This document shows positions 2,242-42,805 of a DNA stretch of 64,000 nucleotides, in pieces. Below the pieces are notes generated by a model, which worked only from the letters and a program-made list of their open reading frames with translations, ran no database searches and was not told the origin of the DNA. How positions within the stretch are numbered: position 1 is the first letter of the stretch; every line of letters begins with the position of its first letter. The stretch is from a virus (lineage: Duplodnaviria; Caudoviricetes), in the IMG/VR virus record IMGVR_UViG_3300017766_003924, positions 1-64,000 of that record; one strand, written 5' to 3'. The translations under genes and the position numbers were made by a program.

Positions 2242-3129
2242 TTATCCGCAAGAGATCTCTGTTTCAATTTTGGTTAAATCTTCAACACTTTCAGACTGCA
2301 TAGATTTAAATCTATCTGCAAGAGTCTGCATTGCTTTAGGGTTAAGGGGCTTTTGTACTGAGCCGGTTTTATCCCACTCATTGACATATCCATGAGTATA
2401 TTCTTCACCACTTATTTCATCTATCATGTCTTTATGTCGAGGTAAATTGCTTGAAATCTTTAAATTTAATACATGATTGTTTACATATGGTGTTAAGAGT
2501 TTACGGTATGGGTGACTGAATTCCCACCAAAATACCGTGTTTGTATATGGGTCATACCTAAAGGGTAAACGTTCCCCAAGGTTTATACCACCTAAATTAG
2601 CATGCGTTTTACCTTTAGGTCCTTTCTTAGTCCACAGTCCGTTTACTCTTCCGGACTTATAAACAGCACCAATATATATATCGTCGACAGTGTATTGAGT
2701 GTTTTCTGAATGAAGTGCCTGGAGTCGTGTCTTTAAATCAATAGGAGTCTTATACCCATGAGTATAATCAGCATATTCCATATTAGGCTTAACTACATTA
2801 TACTTATTCTTCTCCTTCATACCTACATGTTTTGGAGACTGATCATATCTTTTTCTAATGTATAGATTTACGGATATTTTCCATTCAGGATTAATATCTT
2901 CTTGAAGAAGCCACCAGAATACTATATTAGTATGAGGGTCATATCTAAAGCGCTTAAGCTCATGATAATTAAGATGCTGTGGGATTTTATCTTCAAGAAT
3001 TTTATGAGTCTTTTTTGAAGATTTAGTTACTTCTTCACTATATATCTCATGAGAGTTTATATCAATCGTACCTATAAGAATTATATCTTCAGAATACTCT
3101 TCTATAAAATATTGCTTAAATGATTTCAT
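2242..3129 (-). CDS. Hypothetical protein with capsid-targeting-like leader and a tandemly duplicated domain
   Basis: N-terminus MKSFKQYFIEE; internal repeats FRYDPHTNIVFWW / FRYDPYTNTVFWW and DYTHGY / EYTHGY. Confidence 0.75.
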   Translation of the reverse strand: MKSFKQYFIEEYSEDIILIGTIDINSHEIYSEEVTKSSKKTHKILEDKIPQHLNYHELKRFRYDPHTNIVFWWLLQEDINPEWKISVNLYIRKRYDQSPKHVGMKEKNKYNVVKPNMEYADYTHGYKTPIDLKTRLQALHSENTQYTVDDIYIGAVYKSGRVNGLWTKKGPKGKTHANLGGINLGERLPFRYDPYTNTVFWWEFSHPYRKLLTPYVNNHVLNLKISSNLPRHKDMIDEISGEEYTHGYVNEWDKTGSVQKPLNPKAMQTLADRFKSMQSESVEDLTKIETEISCG

Positions 3130-3999: not shown

Positions 4000-5415
4000 T
4001 TACATGTAAACGTTAGCCTGTGCCGGAGCAAATGCAGTACCAAGACCACGTATAATCACTAAGTGATAATAGAGGTTAGCACCGAAGATGTTATCAACAA
4101 CACCGTAACGGGTCAACATACCCACGCGAGGTGAGAAGTCGTTAGGTCCGATAGTTCTCTGAACCATAATAGGGATATATGGGCAGTAGATGATACCAGA
4201 GTCATAGTACTCAGGGCCTTTGTAACCGAGTAATGCATACTCGATTGCATCAGCTGCAGAACGGTCACCGTTCATGCTCTGAGCTTCCGTACGAGTGTCA
4301 CGATACACATTGAATCGTCCACCGAGGTTACCAACCTTCGCAATACCGACTGGCTGAGTATTAACGTTACCGTTAACAGGCATCCACTGGAACTCGTTTA
4401 ACATTTCGAGAATTGCGCACACCTTAGGTGTAGCAATAATGAAGTTAGCGGAACCACGGCGGTTACGAATTGCGATCTTGTTAGCTTCAACAATGATCTT
4501 CTGGTAGAAGTCACGATTACGCTCAGCGAGCCAACGTGCATCTGCAGCAGATGGAGACCAGAATGAATAACCAGTATCTCTACCAGCATTCAAGCAGACT
4601 TGAATCATGCGAATGATCATTTCACGGTCGATTTCGGCCTGTAACTCATATGACATTGCATTTGTGAGTTCATTATCGATATCGATACCGTTCATGTTCT
4701 TGAGATCTTGCTCAAGTTCAACGCTCCAACGAGCAGCTAATCTACGAGTACCAGCTTCAACAGCAGTCTTCTCGAAAGAGATAACCATTTGTGGGATACG
4801 TCCAGTTAATTCATACTGACCGAGAAGTGCCGCAACACCCTTATCACTGTCAATAAAGGCAAAGTCACCACCTGTAAGAACAGATGAAGACGTACCAGTA
4901 AATCTTGTGTCGAGGTATTGATAGCCTAATTCCTTGCCGTCAGCAGGAACTGCTGCACCATGTGCAGTAACAGTGCCGGAACCAATTCCGTCAACACCAT
5001 TACCAAGTGCATCTGCTTCGTACTTATAACGGAGTGCGAATGCAAGACCAACTGGTCCAGTCATTGGCTGAACGCCGACAACTTCATTTGCAATCAACTC
5101 AGGGAAAGTACGACGAATCATTGGGATGAGTACCTTAGGCAAGCGGCTATCGCCGGCTGCGTAATTATCAGAGTTAGTTAACCCAGCGGTGCTAGCACCA
5201 CCGAATACACCAAGACTGCCTGCAACACCAGACTGGTTAGTTGCCTCATTGCACCATACTTCTTGATTCTCTAAGAGAATAGCAGTGGTACGACGGGTGT
5301 GATCATCCTCAATTGGACGAACATTCTTAGATGCGAAATCCAAGATTGGACTCCACTTTTCTACAAGCATTTTTGCTTTTCTTTCATCTATGTAAGATGA
5401 GTGATTTGTGTTCAT
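4000..5415 (-). CDS. gp23: Major capsid protein, T4 gp23 family
   Basis: EKWSPIL, TAILLENQ, LIPMIRRTFP, GVQPMTGPVGLAFALR, AELQAEIDRE-like segment, YCPYIP, TRYG. Confidence 0.97.
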   Translation of the reverse strand: MNTNHSSYIDERKAKMLVEKWSPILDFASKNVRPIEDDHTRRTTAILLENQEVWCNEATNQSGVAGSLGVFGGASTAGLTNSDNYAAGDSRLPKVLIPMIRRTFPELIANEVVGVQPMTGPVGLAFALRYKYEADALGNGVDGIGSGTVTAHGAAVPADGKELGYQYLDTRFTGTSSSVLTGGDFAFIDSDKGVAALLGQYELTGRIPQMVISFEKTAVEAGTRRLAARWSVELEQDLKNMNGIDIDNELTNAMSYELQAEIDREMIIRMIQVCLNAGRDTGYSFWSPSAADARWLAERNRDFYQKIIVEANKIAIRNRRGSANFIIATPKVCAILEMLNEFQWMPVNGNVNTQPVGIAKVGNLGGRFNVYRDTRTEAQSMNGDRSAADAIEYALLGYKGPEYYDSGIIYCPYIPIMVQRTIGPNDFSPRVGMLTRYGVVDNIFGANLYYHLVIIRGLGTAFAPAQANVYM

Positions 5416-5477: not shown

Positions 5478-6389
5478 TTATTTATTCTTTTTCAGCTCAT
5501 TTAAGTAAACTGAAACAGGATTATTTTTATTTTCTACTTCTTGAGTGTCGTTCTTGGTTTCATTGACACTTTCGTTGATGGTCTCATTCTTAACATCGAA
5601 TGATGCAGTATTTTTCATTGCATCGTTCTTCAATTCGACGAGACGCTTCTCTTCAGACTTATCAAATAAGCTGACTGAATATTCAAAATTCTCAGTAATA
5701 AACTTAGGAGACTTATCGCTCAACATCTTGACAATATACTTCTTCTTGTCATCAGGCATTGATGCAGTCTTCTCTAAGAGAATGTTTTGAGTCTGTACGC
5801 GCTCGAACTTCTTTGCAAGTTCATCACGTTCCTTAAGAAGTGCTTTGTTAGACTCAGTAAGAGTATCGATTTGCTTCTTACCATCTTCAATTGCAGGCTT
5901 AACTGCTTCGAGAGATACTGCCTCGTTGATTGCAAGCACTCCACGGAATTTGGTTAAGAGATCGTATGCTCTCTTATTTTTGACAGCCTCGTTAATGGTC
6001 TCAACGGGAATGACGCTATCAATATATGTATCGAGATAGTTTGAAATAGATTCAACAATAGTGTTCTTAAACGTTGTTGCATCTTCATTAAGAGTCTTCT
6101 TTGACATCTCAACAACTTGCTTAAGCTTAGTTGTGTGGTTTTCGGTAATTGCTGCAACAACCTTATCGAGCTTTGCAGAATGATCCTTGTCGATAGCCTC
6201 AAGAAGGGTAGTTACCTTACCGGTAAGCTCTACATCCATTTCAGCTAATGCCTTTTCAACATGAAGCTGAACCCTTGTGTTTACTTCGTTTTCAAATGCT
6301 TCTTGTATTTCAGTACGCACTTGCTCTGTTAAAACATCCTTAGTGCTTTCTTCAAGAATCTTTTTGATATCAGTGGTTGGTGATGACAT
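5478..6389 (-). CDS. gp22: Prohead scaffolding/core protein, gp22-like
   Basis: Coiled-coil, E/K-rich; ISNYLDTYI motif; lies between gp21 and gp23. Confidence 0.85.
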   Translation of the reverse strand: MSSPTTDIKKILEESTKDVLTEQVRTEIQEAFENEVNTRVQLHVEKALAEMDVELTGKVTTLLEAIDKDHSAKLDKVVAAITENHTTKLKQVVEMSKKTLNEDATTFKNTIVESISNYLDTYIDSVIPVETINEAVKNKRAYDLLTKFRGVLAINEAVSLEAVKPAIEDGKKQIDTLTESNKALLKERDELAKKFERVQTQNILLEKTASMPDDKKKYIVKMLSDKSPKFITENFEYSVSLFDKSEEKRLVELKNDAMKNTASFDVKNETINESVNETKNDTQEVENKNNPVSVYLNELKKNK

Positions 6390-6548: not shown

Positions 6549-7232
6549 TTATTTATGGCTATTTAAAGATTTAATAAAGTTGCAAATAGCTTCCTTAATA
6601 TATGCTTCTTTATCTTTACGGGGTAAGGAAATTATTGAAGAACTAAACTTATCATAGCACTCTTCAAGTTCTCCATTATCTCTTAAAACGTATTGCTTGC
6701 TTTCTAAGATACCATCAACAAATGCTCTGTGAGCGCTCGGGTCTGCAACACAGTCAACTGCAACCAAGCGTACCTTGCGTACGAGATTAACTGCATCTGC
6801 TTCTTCAATCAATTGACCCAATGCACGAGAAGACATCCCAAGTTTAATTCCTTCATTAATCAACCCTCTTACAATCATACCCATAGGAGTTGAAGTGAGG
6901 ATTTTTGACTTACCGATGAAGACATTACCATCTTGTTTGAGCTCGGTAATAACGTGGCATGCTCTTTCAGGATTTACTTCTGGAGAGGTAGGATGGTTAA
7001 GTTCTCCCATTGCTCTGTTAGTCTTAATCATCTCAGTATCATAACGTGATACTTCAGTGATTAATTCATCGAGAGGGTAACGACGTTTATTTCTGTTGAT
7101 TTCTTCTGCAACTAAATAAGGCCCTCTTACATATAAGGTTGCAGGTGCATTATTGCTCTTCTCTTCAACAATATATTCAAATGATTGAGGATCGAAACCT
7201 TCTATTAAGAGTTTATGAGGATTAAAAAGCAT
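6549..7232 (-). CDS. gp21: Prohead protease, T4 gp21 family
   Basis: NRNKRRYP, AMGELNHP, LGMSSRALG, DCVADPSAHRAFVDGILE. Confidence 0.95.
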   Translation of the reverse strand: MLFNPHKLLIEGFDPQSFEYIVEEKSNNAPATLYVRGPYLVAEEINRNKRRYPLDELITEVSRYDTEMIKTNRAMGELNHPTSPEVNPERACHVITELKQDGNVFIGKSKILTSTPMGMIVRGLINEGIKLGMSSRALGQLIEEADAVNLVRKVRLVAVDCVADPSAHRAFVDGILESKQYVLRDNGELEECYDKFSSSIISLPRKDKEAYIKEAICNFIKSLNSHK

Positions 7233-7731: not shown

Positions 7732-8187
7732 TTATTTAGAGGTTTGAAATAAATGTTCTTCAGTAAGTATTAAGAACTTATACCCATGCTTGGAGCACCA
7801 CTCTTTTGCAGCCTTCCATTTAGCTTGATTCTTTGTCCAGGTAAGAGACTCATAGATTATAGTTTCTTTCTTCTTTTTCTTCGATACTGTTGGTGGCTCT
7901 GTTTGCTTTTTAGGCTTTACTTCAATAATATATTTGGTATGGGTAGTAGGGCCCTCTTTAATTACGACTGCGCAATCAGTATAATATCTATGAAGCTTTC
8001 CATCAGTAGGGCACATATAAGGAATCACTACTCCTTCAGAACACCATTCTAATACATTGATGTTTTGATCTAACCAAAGAAAGAGTTTTAGCTCCCATGA
8101 AGAGCGATATTTTGGTAATTCTTTACCTATATACTTCTTTGGGTTAATGGGCTTATAGGTTCCTTGTTTAAAATAATCGTTTGACAT
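7732..8187 (-). CDS. gp4: Head completion nuclease, T4 gp4 family
   Basis: YKPINPKKY, YRSSWELK, EWCSEGVVIPY, RYYTD, IEVKPKKQT, KWKAAKEWC. Confidence 0.92.
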   Translation of the reverse strand: MSNDYFKQGTYKPINPKKYIGKELPKYRSSWELKLFLWLDQNINVLEWCSEGVVIPYMCPTDGKLHRYYTDCAVVIKEGPTTHTKYIIEVKPKKQTEPPTVSKKKKKETIIYESLTWTKNQAKWKAAKEWCSKHGYKFLILTEEHLFQTSK

Positions 8188-8837
8188 TAAAATTTAAATT
8201 CATCTGGGAATGTATAATCAGGATACATTTCTATAATTTTATCATACACCTGCTGCATTACTTCACCGAGATTAACAGTTACAATTCCTAATCCTGAATC
8301 GAGATATATATTTTGTTTAGTAATACGCTTGTTAATAAACTCTTTATCTAATGTATATCTTCCATACCCTAAATTAATCGCTGGTCTCATATCTTCTAAT
8401 CCAAATATAGAGACATCATTGGTATAAAGCTTACCTTCTTTGCTTTTGTATTGTAATGCTTTCGGTAATGTGAAGTCTGGAGTTGGCTTTACTGGTGCTT
8501 GTACATACTGTGATATTTTGTCATGTAGAAAGTAATATATAGATTGTGCTTCTTTTGATGCTTTGTCATCTACAAAATCTCCTAATCTCCATCGAATATC
8601 AGATGAAAGCTTTGCAAGTGTTTTTGCAACGCTTGTAGGATCAGTCTCATCAATTAAACCAATTGCTTTATTGATTAAAAATATATCAGTACTGACTACC
8701 TTTTCATGATATATACTCCGAAGATGGTTTATATATCCCTTGAGAGCCTCTTTTAACTCATCCTTTTCTATAGATGTATATTGCTCCCATCCGCTCCATT
8801 CACTATTTTCTGTAAAGAATTGTTTAAAGCTTTTCAT
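8187..8837 (-). CDS. Hypothetical protein with capsid-targeting-like leader
   Basis: N-terminus MKSFKQFFTEN is near-identical to the leader of 2242-3129; the remainder is unrelated. Confidence 0.7.
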   Translation of the reverse strand: MKSFKQFFTENSEWSGWEQYTSIEKDELKEALKGYINHLRSIYHEKVVSTDIFLINKAIGLIDETDPTSVAKTLAKLSSDIRWRLGDFVDDKASKEAQSIYYFLHDKISQYVQAPVKPTPDFTLPKALQYKSKEGKLYTNDVSIFGLEDMRPAINLGYGRYTLDKEFINKRITKQNIYLDSGLGIVTVNLGEVMQQVYDKIIEMYPDYTFPDEFKF

Positions 8838-39599: not shown

Positions 39600-40965
39600 A
39601 TTCTAACATATCCGCAATATCATATACGGATAATTCCTTCTTTAATTCATGGATACGTACACCTCTACCAATTGATTGTAAAATCTTAATTTTAGCTTTT
39701 CCACCACCAGCAAATATAATATTGTGTATGTTATTAATGCTGATACCAGTAGAAAATATTTTTGAGATAGCAACACATATCACATCGTTGTTGCTTTCCA
39801 TTACTTGCTTTACCTTATCTCTATCTTCTACTTCCACCTCTCCCCGGATAAAGTATATTTGTTTATCAGAGTTATGTTTGAGATAATCAGTTAGAAGTTC
39901 ACCGTGTTCTATATGGTCAAGAAGTATCAAAGAATTACCTACTGCTTTATGTGATATTTTTTTAATTAGATTATTACGAAACTCTGATTTTTTAATAAAA
40001 GTGTGTTCTAATCTATATTTGCTCGTAGTATCTGCTTTATCGCAGCTCTTATAATCTGGTGAGGTCTTATAATACACTTTAATTACATGTATACGTGCTG
40101 CGGTAATCGCTTCCTTCTTTATTAACTCAACTCTATCTACATCAAAGATTATAGGTCCAAATTTACCAACAATATTCCAATAATCGTGATTGTCTGGAGG
40201 CATCGTACCAGTGAACCCATACTTATAATTAGTAGGTATACTCTTTAGAATTTTATTTACCTTATTATCTTTTCTAACCTTATGAACCTCATCAACAATA
40301 CATACATCAACATTGCTTATAGTCTTTAACTCATGTTTTCTATTTTGTAAAATACCTAAATTTGAAATAATAATATTGGTGTTAGGTTCTAAATCATAAT
40401 TTCCTGTCCATCTATTAAACTTAAAGTCTACGCAATAGTTTGTAAAGTCTTTAAAAGTCTGATTTACTAGTCCGATGTCAGGTACTATTACTAGTGCTTT
40501 GAAATTAGGTAAAGCATTATAGAGGGTATTAAGGAGACTAGCCATAATGAGAGTCTTTCCTGCACCAGTTTCTGCTCTAATTACACCCCTTCCATACTGA
40601 AGAGCGCTTTTAACTGCAGCTAATTGATAATCTCTAAGTGTGAAGGTACCTAATGTGGGTTGTATATCAGTAAATGAAGTAAATTTTTTAGGGTGAATTA
40701 CATCTAACAGTAGAGGGTCAATTGTGATGACCATATTTGGATTGTATTCCTTTACCCACTTGATTATACTAAATGTTAATCCGGGATCATAATTTCCATT
40801 CATTGAAATCATATGAATTCGATCAGGTATAAAGAAGTAGCCTCTCCGCTTTGCGAATTCCGCACCTTTATTAACAATCGAGAATTTCTCTCGGATGAGG
40901 GGTAATAGGTCCGTCTGAACTACTCCGGTCTGATTTGATGAATTATATGTGAATACAACTTCCAT
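39514..40965 (-). CDS. uvsW: SF2 helicase UvsW
   Basis: LRDYQ, TGAGKT, DEVH, GFTGT, STGISI, LQSIGRGVR. Confidence 0.95.
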   Translation of the reverse strand: MEVVFTYNSSNQTGVVQTDLLPLIREKFSIVNKGAEFAKRRGYFFIPDRIHMISMNGNYDPGLTFSIIKWVKEYNPNMVITIDPLLLDVIHPKKFTSFTDIQPTLGTFTLRDYQLAAVKSALQYGRGVIRAETGAGKTLIMASLLNTLYNALPNFKALVIVPDIGLVNQTFKDFTNYCVDFKFNRWTGNYDLEPNTNIIISNLGILQNRKHELKTISNVDVCIVDEVHKVRKDNKVNKILKSIPTNYKYGFTGTMPPDNHDYWNIVGKFGPIIFDVDRVELIKKEAITAARIHVIKVYYKTSPDYKSCDKADTTSKYRLEHTFIKKSEFRNNLIKKISHKAVGNSLILLDHIEHGELLTDYLKHNSDKQIYFIRGEVEVEDRDKVKQVMESNNDVICVAISKIFSTGISINNIHNIIFAGGGKAKIKILQSIGRGVRIHELKKELSVYDIADMLEYGETHLQSRIKIYNENNLKYDSYHARET

Positions 40966-41360
40966 TATAACGTTTCGAGTTTAATTATTTCTGTAAGGTT
41001 TTTAATATCGTACGTCATATTACCGCAAATCTTTTCAACCTTTTCAAGATATTCAATAATCACCGAAAGATCTTCTATTTTGTTCTGAATATCTTGATAT
41101 TGGTCAGATTTAATTATCATTCCCTCAATAGTGGTAGTTGCGAGCTTTACTGGACTACTTTCATTTACTTTAGTAGTACCTTCACGGAGAAGATGCTTTT
41201 GTCTCCGCTTTAATTCAGATAACTCACCTTTATGTCTCATTAAACGACCAACCCACTTATGCTTAATTCCTGGGAGTCTTAATTGCTTATCCTTTAACGA
41301 AAGCTGATCAAGGGTTACATCCTCTTGAATCTCCTTGATATATTGATTTACTAATTCCAT
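40965..41360 (-). CDS. uvsY: Recombination mediator UvsY
   Basis: LPGIKHKWVGRL, IEYLEKVEKI, YDIKN.TEIIKLE; adjacent to uvsW; start moved to MELVNQY (41360). Confidence 0.8.
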   Translation of the reverse strand: MELVNQYIKEIQEDVTLDQLSLKDKQLRLPGIKHKWVGRLMRHKGELSELKRRQKHLLREGTTKVNESSPVKLATTTIEGMIIKSDQYQDIQNKIEDLSVIIEYLEKVEKICGNMTYDIKNLTEIIKLETL

Positions 41361-41417
41361 ACCTTTATTCTTAAATAATATTATAGATAGCATTATATGC
41401 AATATCTGTAACTATAT

Positions 41418-42236
41418 ATGTTCAATAATAAAGTTCAGGAATTTTTGAGTGAGAGCGATGAGAATAACGATCTCAACAATAAAAACCTCTTTAAATTTCA
41501 CAAAAAGCTGTCAGATCAAGTAAGAACAAAGACAGAAGAAGCAGGTAAAGCCTTTGATGCAGCAGACTTCAAAGTGGGTGATACACTATACACTCAAGCA
41601 GGTAGCGAGGTTCGTGTAATCGGACGAGGTTTAAAGTTTTCTAAGAAATCAGGTAGAGGAATGATTCTAGGTGAAGTCATTAGCTCAAAAAAATATCCTC
41701 ATTCAGTAGGTACAAAGACGTTTATCTATGTAGATATGCTCTCTTATGATGAACCAATTACAGAGAATTTTATTGGAGGCAATACTTCAGGGGTAGTTGG
41801 TTTTGGATCAGGTAACGCAGCATCCTCTTCAACAGATACATACGCACCAGGAGATAATAGACTTCCTTCTGTTATAGGTAAAAAGAAAGGAAAGAAAAAG
41901 ATTCACATTCAGCGTAGACCGCTTATTAAAGAGCGTTGTGAGACATGCGATCTACCTGTTCAAGTATTAGACGACTCAACTGGCGCGTACTTTAACATAA
42001 CATATATTGATAAAGAGGATAAGACTTTTATCGTTATAACTGATATTCACATCCCAGCCGATGCTAAGGGTGCTACTAAGAGATTGTTTGCTGCTCTTAA
42101 AGAGATATCGTCTACAACTCAATACCCTACTATGATACCTGCTGCGGTGGTACAATCCGATAAAAGACGAGAGATATTAAAAAAGTACGGATTCGAAGGT
42201 GATGGTGATATGGTGTGTACCTGTGGATTAGCTTGA
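41418..42236 (+). CDS. Putative packaged polyprotein: leader, small beta domain, capsid N-arm-like motif and GNAT-like domain
   Basis: Leader KVQEFLSE; internal DTYAPGDNRLPSV matches gp23 DNYAAGDSRLPKV; C-terminal KGATKRLFAALKE...LKKYGF. Confidence 0.65.
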   Translation: MFNNKVQEFLSESDENNDLNNKNLFKFHKKLSDQVRTKTEEAGKAFDAADFKVGDTLYTQAGSEVRVIGRGLKFSKKSGRGMILGEVISSKKYPHSVGTKTFIYVDMLSYDEPITENFIGGNTSGVVGFGSGNAASSSTDTYAPGDNRLPSVIGKKKGKKKIHIQRRPLIKERCETCDLPVQVLDDSTGAYFNITYIDKEDKTFIVITDIHIPADAKGATKRLFAALKEISSTTQYPTMIPAAVVQSDKRREILKKYGFEGDGDMVCTCGLA

Positions 42237-42265: not shown

Positions 42266-42805
42266 ATGAGTAACGCGTCTAAGAATAAGGGTAAAGCTTT
42301 TGAGAGAGAGTTCGCAAAGCACCTGACATCAATCTTTGGTCTTAATTTTAATAGGGTACCGAATTCCGGTGCATTTACTGGTGGTTTGAATAGCTTTCGT
42401 AATAACTATCTTACCGAAGAGCAAAAGCTTCTTGCTACTGGAGATATTATTGTACCTAAGGAATTAGGGAGATATGCATTTGAATGTAAGTGGTATAAGG
42501 ATTTCGAGTGGCATCATGTATTAACTCAAAATCTCACACTCGATAAATGGATTGCGCAGGCAAGTGCAACCTCAAAGCAGTGGTTCCTCATCTTTAAGAT
42601 AAACCGTCAAGGATGGTTTGTAGTTTACAGTGATGTGAATGCATCTCTCTATAAGCATGTAGGTAATAAGATTCTGTATGGTAAGAACATTATTGTTTCT
42701 GGTGATCAATTTTTTGAATTGAATAAAGAAACTCTGTTATTACCTATGGTAGATCTTGAACCTGTGAAGAGTGATGTTAATATTACATTGACATGTTCGA
42801 AATAG
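42266..42805 (+). CDS. Holliday-junction resolvase (Hjc-like PD-(D/E)XK)
   Basis: SKNKGKAFERE, RVPNSGA, GDII, FECKWY; TAAATA 5 nt upstream. Confidence 0.85.
   Translation: MSNASKNKGKAFEREFAKHLTSIFGLNFNRVPNSGAFTGGLNSFRNNYLTEEQKLLATGDIIVPKELGRYAFECKWYKDFEWHHVLTQNLTLDKWIAQASATSKQWFLIFKINRQGWFVVYSDVNASLYKHVGNKILYGKNIIVSGDQFFELNKETLLLPMVDLEPVKSDVNITLTCSK

Follow-up and report, generated by a model that had tools for sequence, protein, structure and literature searches.

A copy of the mature capsid protein N terminus in a gene family at the uvsY/uvsW locus of uncultured aquatic T4-like phages

The scaffolding protein of the helper phage binds the capsid through one of its ends, and the SaPI1 protein CpmB shares this end. 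In phage T4, a targeting leader alone suffices for packaging of a protein into the head. The T4 internal proteins enter the core via propeptides of 10 to 19 aa, and the protease gp21 cleaves after Glu (PMC9026906; PMC3012670). The N terminus of the T4 major capsid protein (MCP), gp23, is disordered up to L106 in the unexpanded head, where it lies inside and probably touches the scaffolding core, and capsid-length mutations map to the same N-terminal region (PMC9546572). After expansion, this N terminus consists of an arm and an N-fist (residues 66 to 91 of gp23*), which make intercapsomer contacts and form part of the Soc site; in the mature T4 head, the N-fist is on the outer surface (PMC9546572). 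The N-fists that face the portal are disordered (PMC7136217).

A T4 gene itself encodes a copy of this segment. The product of gene 61.1 (54 aa, a hypothetical protein in the T4 record) has a 10-aa leader ending in I-K-E, plus a Lys run, and it matches residues 57 to 93 of T4 gp23, which span the maturation site between E65 and A66, with an E value of 6e-9. In PHROGs, gp61.1 is phrog_1823, and a longer fused form is phrog_2086. Relatives of 61.1 were found in 1,389 phage records. No late promoter was detected directly upstream of T4 61.1.

The gene described here was found in an 84,477-bp contig from IMG/VR, whose first 64,000 nucleotides are called the window. The features of the window that matter for the following analysis are listed here with their coordinates and strands.

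41418 to 42236, plus strand: ORF of 272 aa (stop codon included in the coordinates), made up of a leader, an N-domain, a capsid-arm mimic module and a C-domain; the locus is divergent from uvsY/uvsW.
41418 to 41453, plus strand: putative leader of the capsid-targeting type, residues 1 to 12, ending in L-S-E; by eye it resembles the leaders of T4 gp61.1 and of two head-module ORFs.
41454 to 41768, plus strand: N-domain, residues 13 to 117, a helix and then a beta-rich part (AF2 model, low confidence), ending in I-T-E; homologue of the stand-alone protein P0126.
41769 to 41933, plus strand: copy of the mature gp23 N terminus, residues 118 to 172, ending in I-K-E; a Gly-rich start, a linker, the core motif, a Lys run and QRRP (BLASTP and profile).
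41835 to 41873, plus strand: the 13-residue core common to the ORF and gp23, 9/13 identical.
41880 to 41900, plus strand: Lys run (residues 155 to 161, six of the seven being Lys), inserted after the core and ahead of QRRP; a K/R-rich tail is a trait of the family.
41934 to 42233, plus strand: C-domain, residues 173 to 272, predicted GNAT-like fold of mini-GNAT size (AF2 model, Foldseek, VIA-align).
5110 to 5241, minus strand: gp23 residues 59 to 102, the predicted mature N terminus (N-fist and start of the arm) copied by the ORF (alignment).
4000 to 5415, minus strand: gene for the gp23-type MCP, 471 aa (PF07068, E 1.4e-86).
6549 to 7232, minus strand: gene for a gp21-type prohead protease, the presumed processing enzyme (PF03420, E 5.7e-30).
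40965 to 41361, minus strand: uvsY, the divergent neighbor that marks the conserved locus (PF11056, phrog_231).
41372 to 41377, plus strand: TAAATA, a late-promoter-like hexamer 46 nt before the start codon (motif).

The initial annotation had described the ORF and gp23 as sharing cores with 9 of 13 identical residues, and these cores were found where it had placed them (41835 to 41873 in the ORF, 5131 to 5169 in gp23). When the two proteins were compared by BLASTP, residues 122 to 153 of the ORF aligned with residues 60 to 96 of the MCP (E 5e-5, 16/37 identical). A regular expression for the core was found in only two of the 601 stop-to-stop frames of the whole contig, namely, the ORF and the MCP. 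A profile was then made without the window, on the basis of 26 peptides that belong to other phages; it matched the ORF with an E value of 7.7e-13 and the MCP with an E value of 1.6e-10, and the next match in the contig had an E value of 2. Inspection of both proteins confirmed that each core follows a Gly-rich segment that starts just past a hydrophobic-x-E site and is itself followed by RR. The claim that this part of the ORF is a copy of the mature gp23 N terminus is thus well founded. When aligned with T4 gp23, the window's core falls where the N-fist ends and the arm begins. By the T4 rule, and judging by what the relatives conserve, the window gp23 is predicted to be cleaved after E58; in the ORF, I-T-E117, also a hydrophobic-x-E sequence, directly precedes the copy, and a domain of 105 aa stands between it and the leader. 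At the DNA level, the two segments differ in their codons, so the copy is not a recent duplication. The same uninterrupted ORF was present with 99% identity in an independent IMG/VR contig. The Gp23 profile PF07068 did not match the ORF and hit a single gene in the contig; tblastn with the ORF found no match among 50,697 cultured-phage records; and word-index protein searches returned only the ORF itself. The single-sequence AF2 model of the full-length ORF (pLDDT 42) was too poor for use.

How does this protein compare with the known ones? The window ORF and T4 61.1 are akin by design, each resembling the MCP of its own phage, and they have no detectable sequence similarity to each other. Neither the window ORF nor P0123 matched any PHROG at an E value of <=0.1, phrog_1823 and phrog_2086 included. 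Both designs combine a leader of the targeting type, a copy of the phage's own gp23 across the maturation site and the N-fist, and a Lys run. They differ in that 61.1 lies beside the primase gene 61, whereas the window ORF is at the uvsY/uvsW locus, and the window protein is five times longer, with two extra domains. The initial annotation had recognized no described system of this kind. For the literature searched, this holds, as mimic peptides of this kind are without description there, but T4 has a gene of this design, the unstudied 61.1. As for the T4 internal proteins IPI, IPII, IPIII and Alt, the window protein shares with them a short leader with a hydrophobic-x-E end, a basic character and a gp21-type protease encoded in the same genome; its leader of 12 residues falls, by inspection, within the rule of 10 to 19 aa. 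Some of these systems also have enzymatic cargo, Alt in T4 and mini-GNAT, ParB-like and DUF5661 domains here (PMC9026906, PMC3012670). Unlike the window protein, the T4 internal proteins are without a capsid copy, and no homology was found between them; the T4 proteins are proven to be packaged and cleaved, whereas packaging and cleavage of the window protein are predicted. The gp23* N-fist and N-arm (66 to about 106) align with the copied segment, but in the window protein this segment is detached from the HK97-type body and is followed by a Lys run or cargo. CpmB of SaPI1 is a precedent: it, too, is small and reproduces a contact element of capsid assembly, by which it enters or redirects assembly; however, it copies the scaffold element of another genome, which it parasitizes, whereas the window phage copies its own capsid protein.

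Next, relatives of the copied segment were examined. An exhaustive HMMER search showed that small stand-alone proteins of 57 to 83 aa match residues 113 to 171 of the ORF. In these peptides (57 to 90 aa over the whole family), a short leader is followed by a Gly-rich start, by the core and by a Lys run with Q-R-R-P. Their genes are divergent from uvsY and uvsW, at the same place as the window ORF. In one relative contig, the next conserved gene encodes a PDDEXK_15 nuclease, as in the window. Three HMMER matches (P0122, P0124 and P0127) were set aside as matches of composition or repeats, P0127 being an HYR-repeat surface protein. A scan of IMG/VR gave 56 loci, with about 45 peptide genes and 9 MCP genes. 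According to the synteny table, the peptide gene lies within a few hundred bases of uvsW, on the opposite strand, at 38 of 40 other loci, and two loci are too short to include uvsW; apart from the near-identical contig, UvsW in this table is only 33 to 47% identical to that of the window. All five complete relatives (about 207 to 230 kb) have one peptide gene at the locus, although in one of them the core of the peptide is degenerate and the gene was found by synteny alone. Pairwise dN/dS values of the peptide genes ranged from 0.06 to 0.42, with about 0.1 to 0.25 as the summary figure for the family; by this measure, the stand-alone genes are under purifying selection and are real genes. The idea of a remnant of a second capsid gene was rejected, since the genes are under purifying selection, keep their basic tail and occupy a fixed locus.

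A T4-type late-promoter hexamer, TAAATA or TATAAATA, occurs <=80 nt upstream of 34/42 peptide genes, mostly at positions -11 to -21; the late-type hexamer of the window, at -46, is farther upstream than usual in the relatives. The leaders of the relatives are mostly 13 to 17 aa long and have L/V/I-x-E at their ends. The 45 residues past the core in the stand-alone forms contain 8 to 17 Lys/Arg and zero D/E, and the window ORF has its Lys run followed by QRRP, as in these members. With 272 aa, it is above the small size range (about 50 to 90 aa); other fused forms have 112 to 222 aa. The phages concerned are uncultured aquatic T4-like phages. Their MCP is at most 37% identical to that of any of the 50,697 phage records, yet in metagenome assemblies its relatives number in the thousands, and the best 120 are 69 to 75% identical to it. 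Taken together, the window ORF is very probably a member of the mimic family at its conserved locus. We regard it as the ortholog, in this phage, of a small late gene that is otherwise conserved, enlarged here by additional domains.

Two further observations concern this locus. Two syntenic family members (loci L183 and L194, records G027 and G028) have lost the core but still show a leader, a Gly-rich start, a Lys run and the R-R element. In several relatives, a gene for a GIY-YIG (SegE-type) homing endonuclease or a PDDEXK_15 nuclease lies beside the peptide gene (L005, 4830 to 5243; L006, 289 to 744; L007, 1687 to 2532; L194, 3589 to 4029, by eye only; window, 42266 to 42805), and the locus looks like an insertion hot spot for homing endonucleases.

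The initial annotation had also proposed that the protein is modular, with protease-type x-E sites. This was borne out, as other phages encode two of the three modules as separate genes and the hydrophobic-x-E sites of the window protein fall exactly at the module junctions. On the N-terminal side, the N-domain is homologous to P0126, a stand-alone protein of 121 aa (BLASTP E 9e-11; HMMER E 3.8e-4 library-wide). P0126 starts with a leader of its own, and its end lies five residues beyond the junction. On the C-terminal side, the stand-alone peptides stop a few residues past Q-R-R-P, where the C-domain of the window protein starts. The N-domain has no family in Pfam or PHROGs, and an Atlas search gave nothing above noise. 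In an unrelated contig (L008, 4422 to 5407), the gene that follows the N-domain homologue has an almost identical 13-residue leader, which suggests an array of leader-bearing genes for internal-protein-like products.

The C-domain has no sequence homologue according to Pfam (E <= 1), HMMER and a word-index search. Its AF2 model has a low confidence (pLDDT 59.8). With this low-confidence model, nearly all of the matches listed by Foldseek were of the GNAT type (best E 4.5e-3). In VIA-align, an independent all-against-all comparison of structures, all 50 rows listed were of the acetyltransferase type, with Z scores of 6.4 to 8.0 over 80 to 93 residues, where a Z score below 8 may reflect a common arrangement. 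Among minimal GNATs, the 92-aa anti-CRISPR protein AcrVA5 is similar in size, and the model superposes on it with a Z score of 7.6 and an rmsd of 2.7 over 80 residues; the C-domain differs from these proteins in having no sequence similarity to them, and the acetyl-CoA motif is not clearly present. By inspection, the motif Q/R-x-x-G-x-G/A is matched in part by K-G-A-T after the fourth strand. A weak lead from the Atlas is a cluster with PF00583 in 14% of its members. A GNAT-like fold of the C-domain is thus supported, not proven: of the GNAT-like domain initially proposed, the fold-level resemblance stood, with matches almost wholly to GNAT folds, but Pfam gave no GNAT match and the model is of low confidence.

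Relatives fuse the mimic module to other domains, at its N- or C-terminal side. The following kinds of cargo were found.

DUF5661 (E 3.5e-16).
A ParB-like domain (phrog_17560, E 3.7e-12; phrog_33277, E 2.9e-4).
A Cys-containing basic domain, which is the C-terminal part of the peptide gene product in L031 and L051.
A conserved domain of ~130 aa without a family, after the mimic and the Lys run (L032, 807 to 1418; L059, 2977 to 3570; L165, 1459 to 2067).

The Cys-containing basic domain is a separate gene just upstream of the peptide gene in L017, L029 and L036; since it is fused to the peptide in L031 and L051, gene fusion or fission has occurred at the locus. In the ~130-aa domain of L032, L059 and L165, an R / S-x-S / E pattern like that of ADP-ribosyltransferases such as T4 Alt can be seen by eye. 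An assignment as ADP-ribosyltransferase was not supported by Pfam, PHROGs or a sequence search of the PDB.

Leaders of the same type are also present elsewhere in the window. Two ORFs of the head module, at 2242 to 3129 (minus strand, 295 aa) and 8187 to 8837 (minus strand, 216 aa), have near-identical 10-residue leaders with a hydrophobic-x-E end, which are very like that of T4 gp61.1, and neither ORF has a PHROG family. Their products are candidates for packaged, protease-processed head proteins. Between the protease and MCP genes, the ORF at 5478 to 6389 would be the scaffold by position only; it is without a PHROG match.

Covariation of the copy with the cognate gp23 had been set by the initial annotation as the test on which its reading could fail. 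In the MCPs of this clade, the core and the following arm are almost invariant, and the Gly-rich linker, which leads from the cleavage site to the core, varies in sequence and length. Fourteen records hold both genes, and the linker of each peptide was compared with all 14 MCP linkers. The cognate MCP ranked first or second of 14 for 10 of the 14 peptide linkers, and not one of 100,000 permutations attained the summed score of the cognate pairs (p <= 1e-5), with the same result when the core was included. In some peptide/MCP pairs, long lineage-specific strings are common to both proteins. Over these 14 pairs, the copy thus does covary with the cognate MCP. Where the aligned residues are identical, the codon was shared in 38% of cases in cognate pairs and in 37% in noncognate pairs, compared with the 41% expected from codon usage. 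Because codon sharing is no higher in cognate than in noncognate pairs, recent gene conversion was rejected as the source of the covariation, and the likeness is kept at the protein level; old gene conversion followed by purifying selection may have contributed. For the window's own pair, there was no special match of the linkers, with the cognate MCP ranking 8 of 14, or 3 when the core was included. An exact match to the MCP is not obligatory either, since the core was lost in 2 of 15 relatives, even though their MCP retains the motif.

We propose, with a probability of roughly 0.5, that the window ORF encodes a late internal head polyprotein that is incorporated into the prohead and processed by the prohead protease. 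The sequences show the family, its synteny, the selection on it, its covariation with the cognate MCP and its modularity, whereas packaging, cleavage, the binding partner and the enzymatic activity of the ORF product are all inferred. In favor of the proposal are the family and its locus, the late-type hexamers, the leaders here and in the head module, the gp21-type protease gene, the covariation, the portability of the module, the T4 counterpart 61.1 and the T4 literature on internal proteins and the gp23 N terminus. The protein would be made late and taken into the assembling prohead via its targeting-type leader and its capsid-like segment. This segment would show the same surface as the gp23 N terminus and engage the prohead partner of the latter, either the scaffold core or the inner shell; it would therefore have to track the cognate MCP. 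The gp21-type protease would cut after L-S-E12, after I-T-E117, which corresponds by homology to the place where gp23 is matured, and after I-K-E172. These cuts would free the N-domain of 105 aa, a basic arm peptide of 55 aa and the mini-GNAT domain of 100 aa. The arm peptide would remain with the DNA or the inner wall, and the N- and C-domains would be cargo, of which the mini-GNAT domain may enter the host with the DNA. Several points fit this proposal less well. Among them are the unremarkable linker match of the window's own pair, the loss of the core in 2 of 15 relatives, the missing late promoter directly upstream of T4 61.1 and the more distant hexamer of the window. Since the leader alone suffices in T4, packaging itself does not explain why the capsid copy is kept. 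In addition, because the mature N-fist of T4 is external, a peptide inside the head is a poor fit, unless the shared partner is a component of the prohead.

Less probable than such a processed polyprotein, but the best of the alternatives, is a direct role of the copy on the shell. The arm copy might fill sites on the gp23 shell that otherwise take up the N-fist or arm of a neighbor, for example, empty ones around the portal; it might cement the shell or tune its nucleation, size or expansion, and the fused domains would be tethered rather than released. Direct contact with the MCP body would be expected to give covariation with the cognate MCP at the protein level, as found. The N-fist and arm of T4 make intercapsomer contacts, and length mutations map there (PMC9546572); the portal vertex is special in that N-fists turned toward it are disordered (PMC7136217). 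The copy of some members reaches the arm proper, through RR-x-F-P-E-L, and the five complete relatives are without a gp24 paralog. On the other hand, the pentons are presumably made of gp23, which leaves no obvious empty N-fist sites except at the portal. The mature N-fist of T4 is external, yet the leader and cleavage sites indicate the prohead interior. Loss of the core is tolerated in two relatives, and hydrophobic-x-E at both junctions suggests release rather than tethering. A complex prediction for two mature gp23 chains with the 55-aa module, run without controls, gave a score of 0.00, which speaks neither for nor against binding.

The vertex proteins of the clade were also surveyed. The five complete relatives (L046, L057, L078, L093 and L122) have one Gp23 Pfam gene each, whereas the T4 control has two, gp23 and gp24, and the aquatic T4-like clade seems to be without a separate vertex protein. 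With a single PF07068 gene in the complete relatives, the peptide would not be standing in for the missing arm of a gp24-type vertex protein.

It is quite unlikely that the free copy acts as a decoy that titrates a recognizer of the gp23 N terminus, be it the prohead protease, with an effect on the timing of maturation, a folding chaperone or a host defense sensor of capsid protein. The start of the copy does coincide with the maturation site, the residues behind this site are retained, and tracking of the cognate MCP would fit a sequence-specific recognizer. However, we found no candidate recognizer, and a decoy leaves the polybasic tail and the variety of the cargo unexplained. An abortive-infection sensor would also be expected to be triggered, not blocked, by a decoy.

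A weapon against coinfecting relatives, in which the mimic poisons the capsid assembly of competitors, is highly improbable. An arm mimic could in principle disturb assembly, and nothing more direct points this way; yet the best match of the copy is the phage's own MCP, so that its own assembly would be poisoned first, and, unlike typical exclusion genes, the gene belongs to the syntenic core of the clade, where it is present in single copy and evolves under purifying selection. Finally, a fortuitous chimeric ORF without function, due to low-complexity resemblance or to an assembly artifact joining unrelated pieces, is scarcely credible: the fused form is confined to this lineage (the window and one 99% identical contig) and its C-domain has no sequence relatives, but the profile singled out the ORF and the MCP (E 7.7e-13 and 1.6e-10) and nothing else in the contig, the locus is conserved, two assemblies agree, and the homologues that stand alone end where the junctions lie.

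Beyond the window, copying of the capsid N terminus might be a general and so far overlooked address-and-anchor principle of T4-like phages, in which one free, coevolving copy would enter the prohead through the assembly contacts of the capsid protein itself and act as a carrier; enzymes would have been attached to it repeatedly in different lineages (a mini-GNAT here, ParB-like and DUF5661 domains elsewhere) and would pass into the host together with the DNA. We regard this generalization as tentative and rather doubtful.

The assembly of the T4 head is among the best-studied pathways of its kind, and yet a conserved gene that copies the capsid maturation site and the N-fist is without an assigned role. 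The tracking of the MCP, the fixed locus and the repeated fusions to enzyme-like domains make it a concrete, testable case of an overlooked head component or assembly factor. What is new here is the three-part fused form with a GNAT-like cargo domain, together with covariation that is quantified and controlled at the codon level. Should the copy act as a carrier, nature would have a lineage-specific tag for packaging beside the classical targeting leader, and the window version would be a candidate for an acetyltransferase delivered by the virion. The family can be tested directly in T4.
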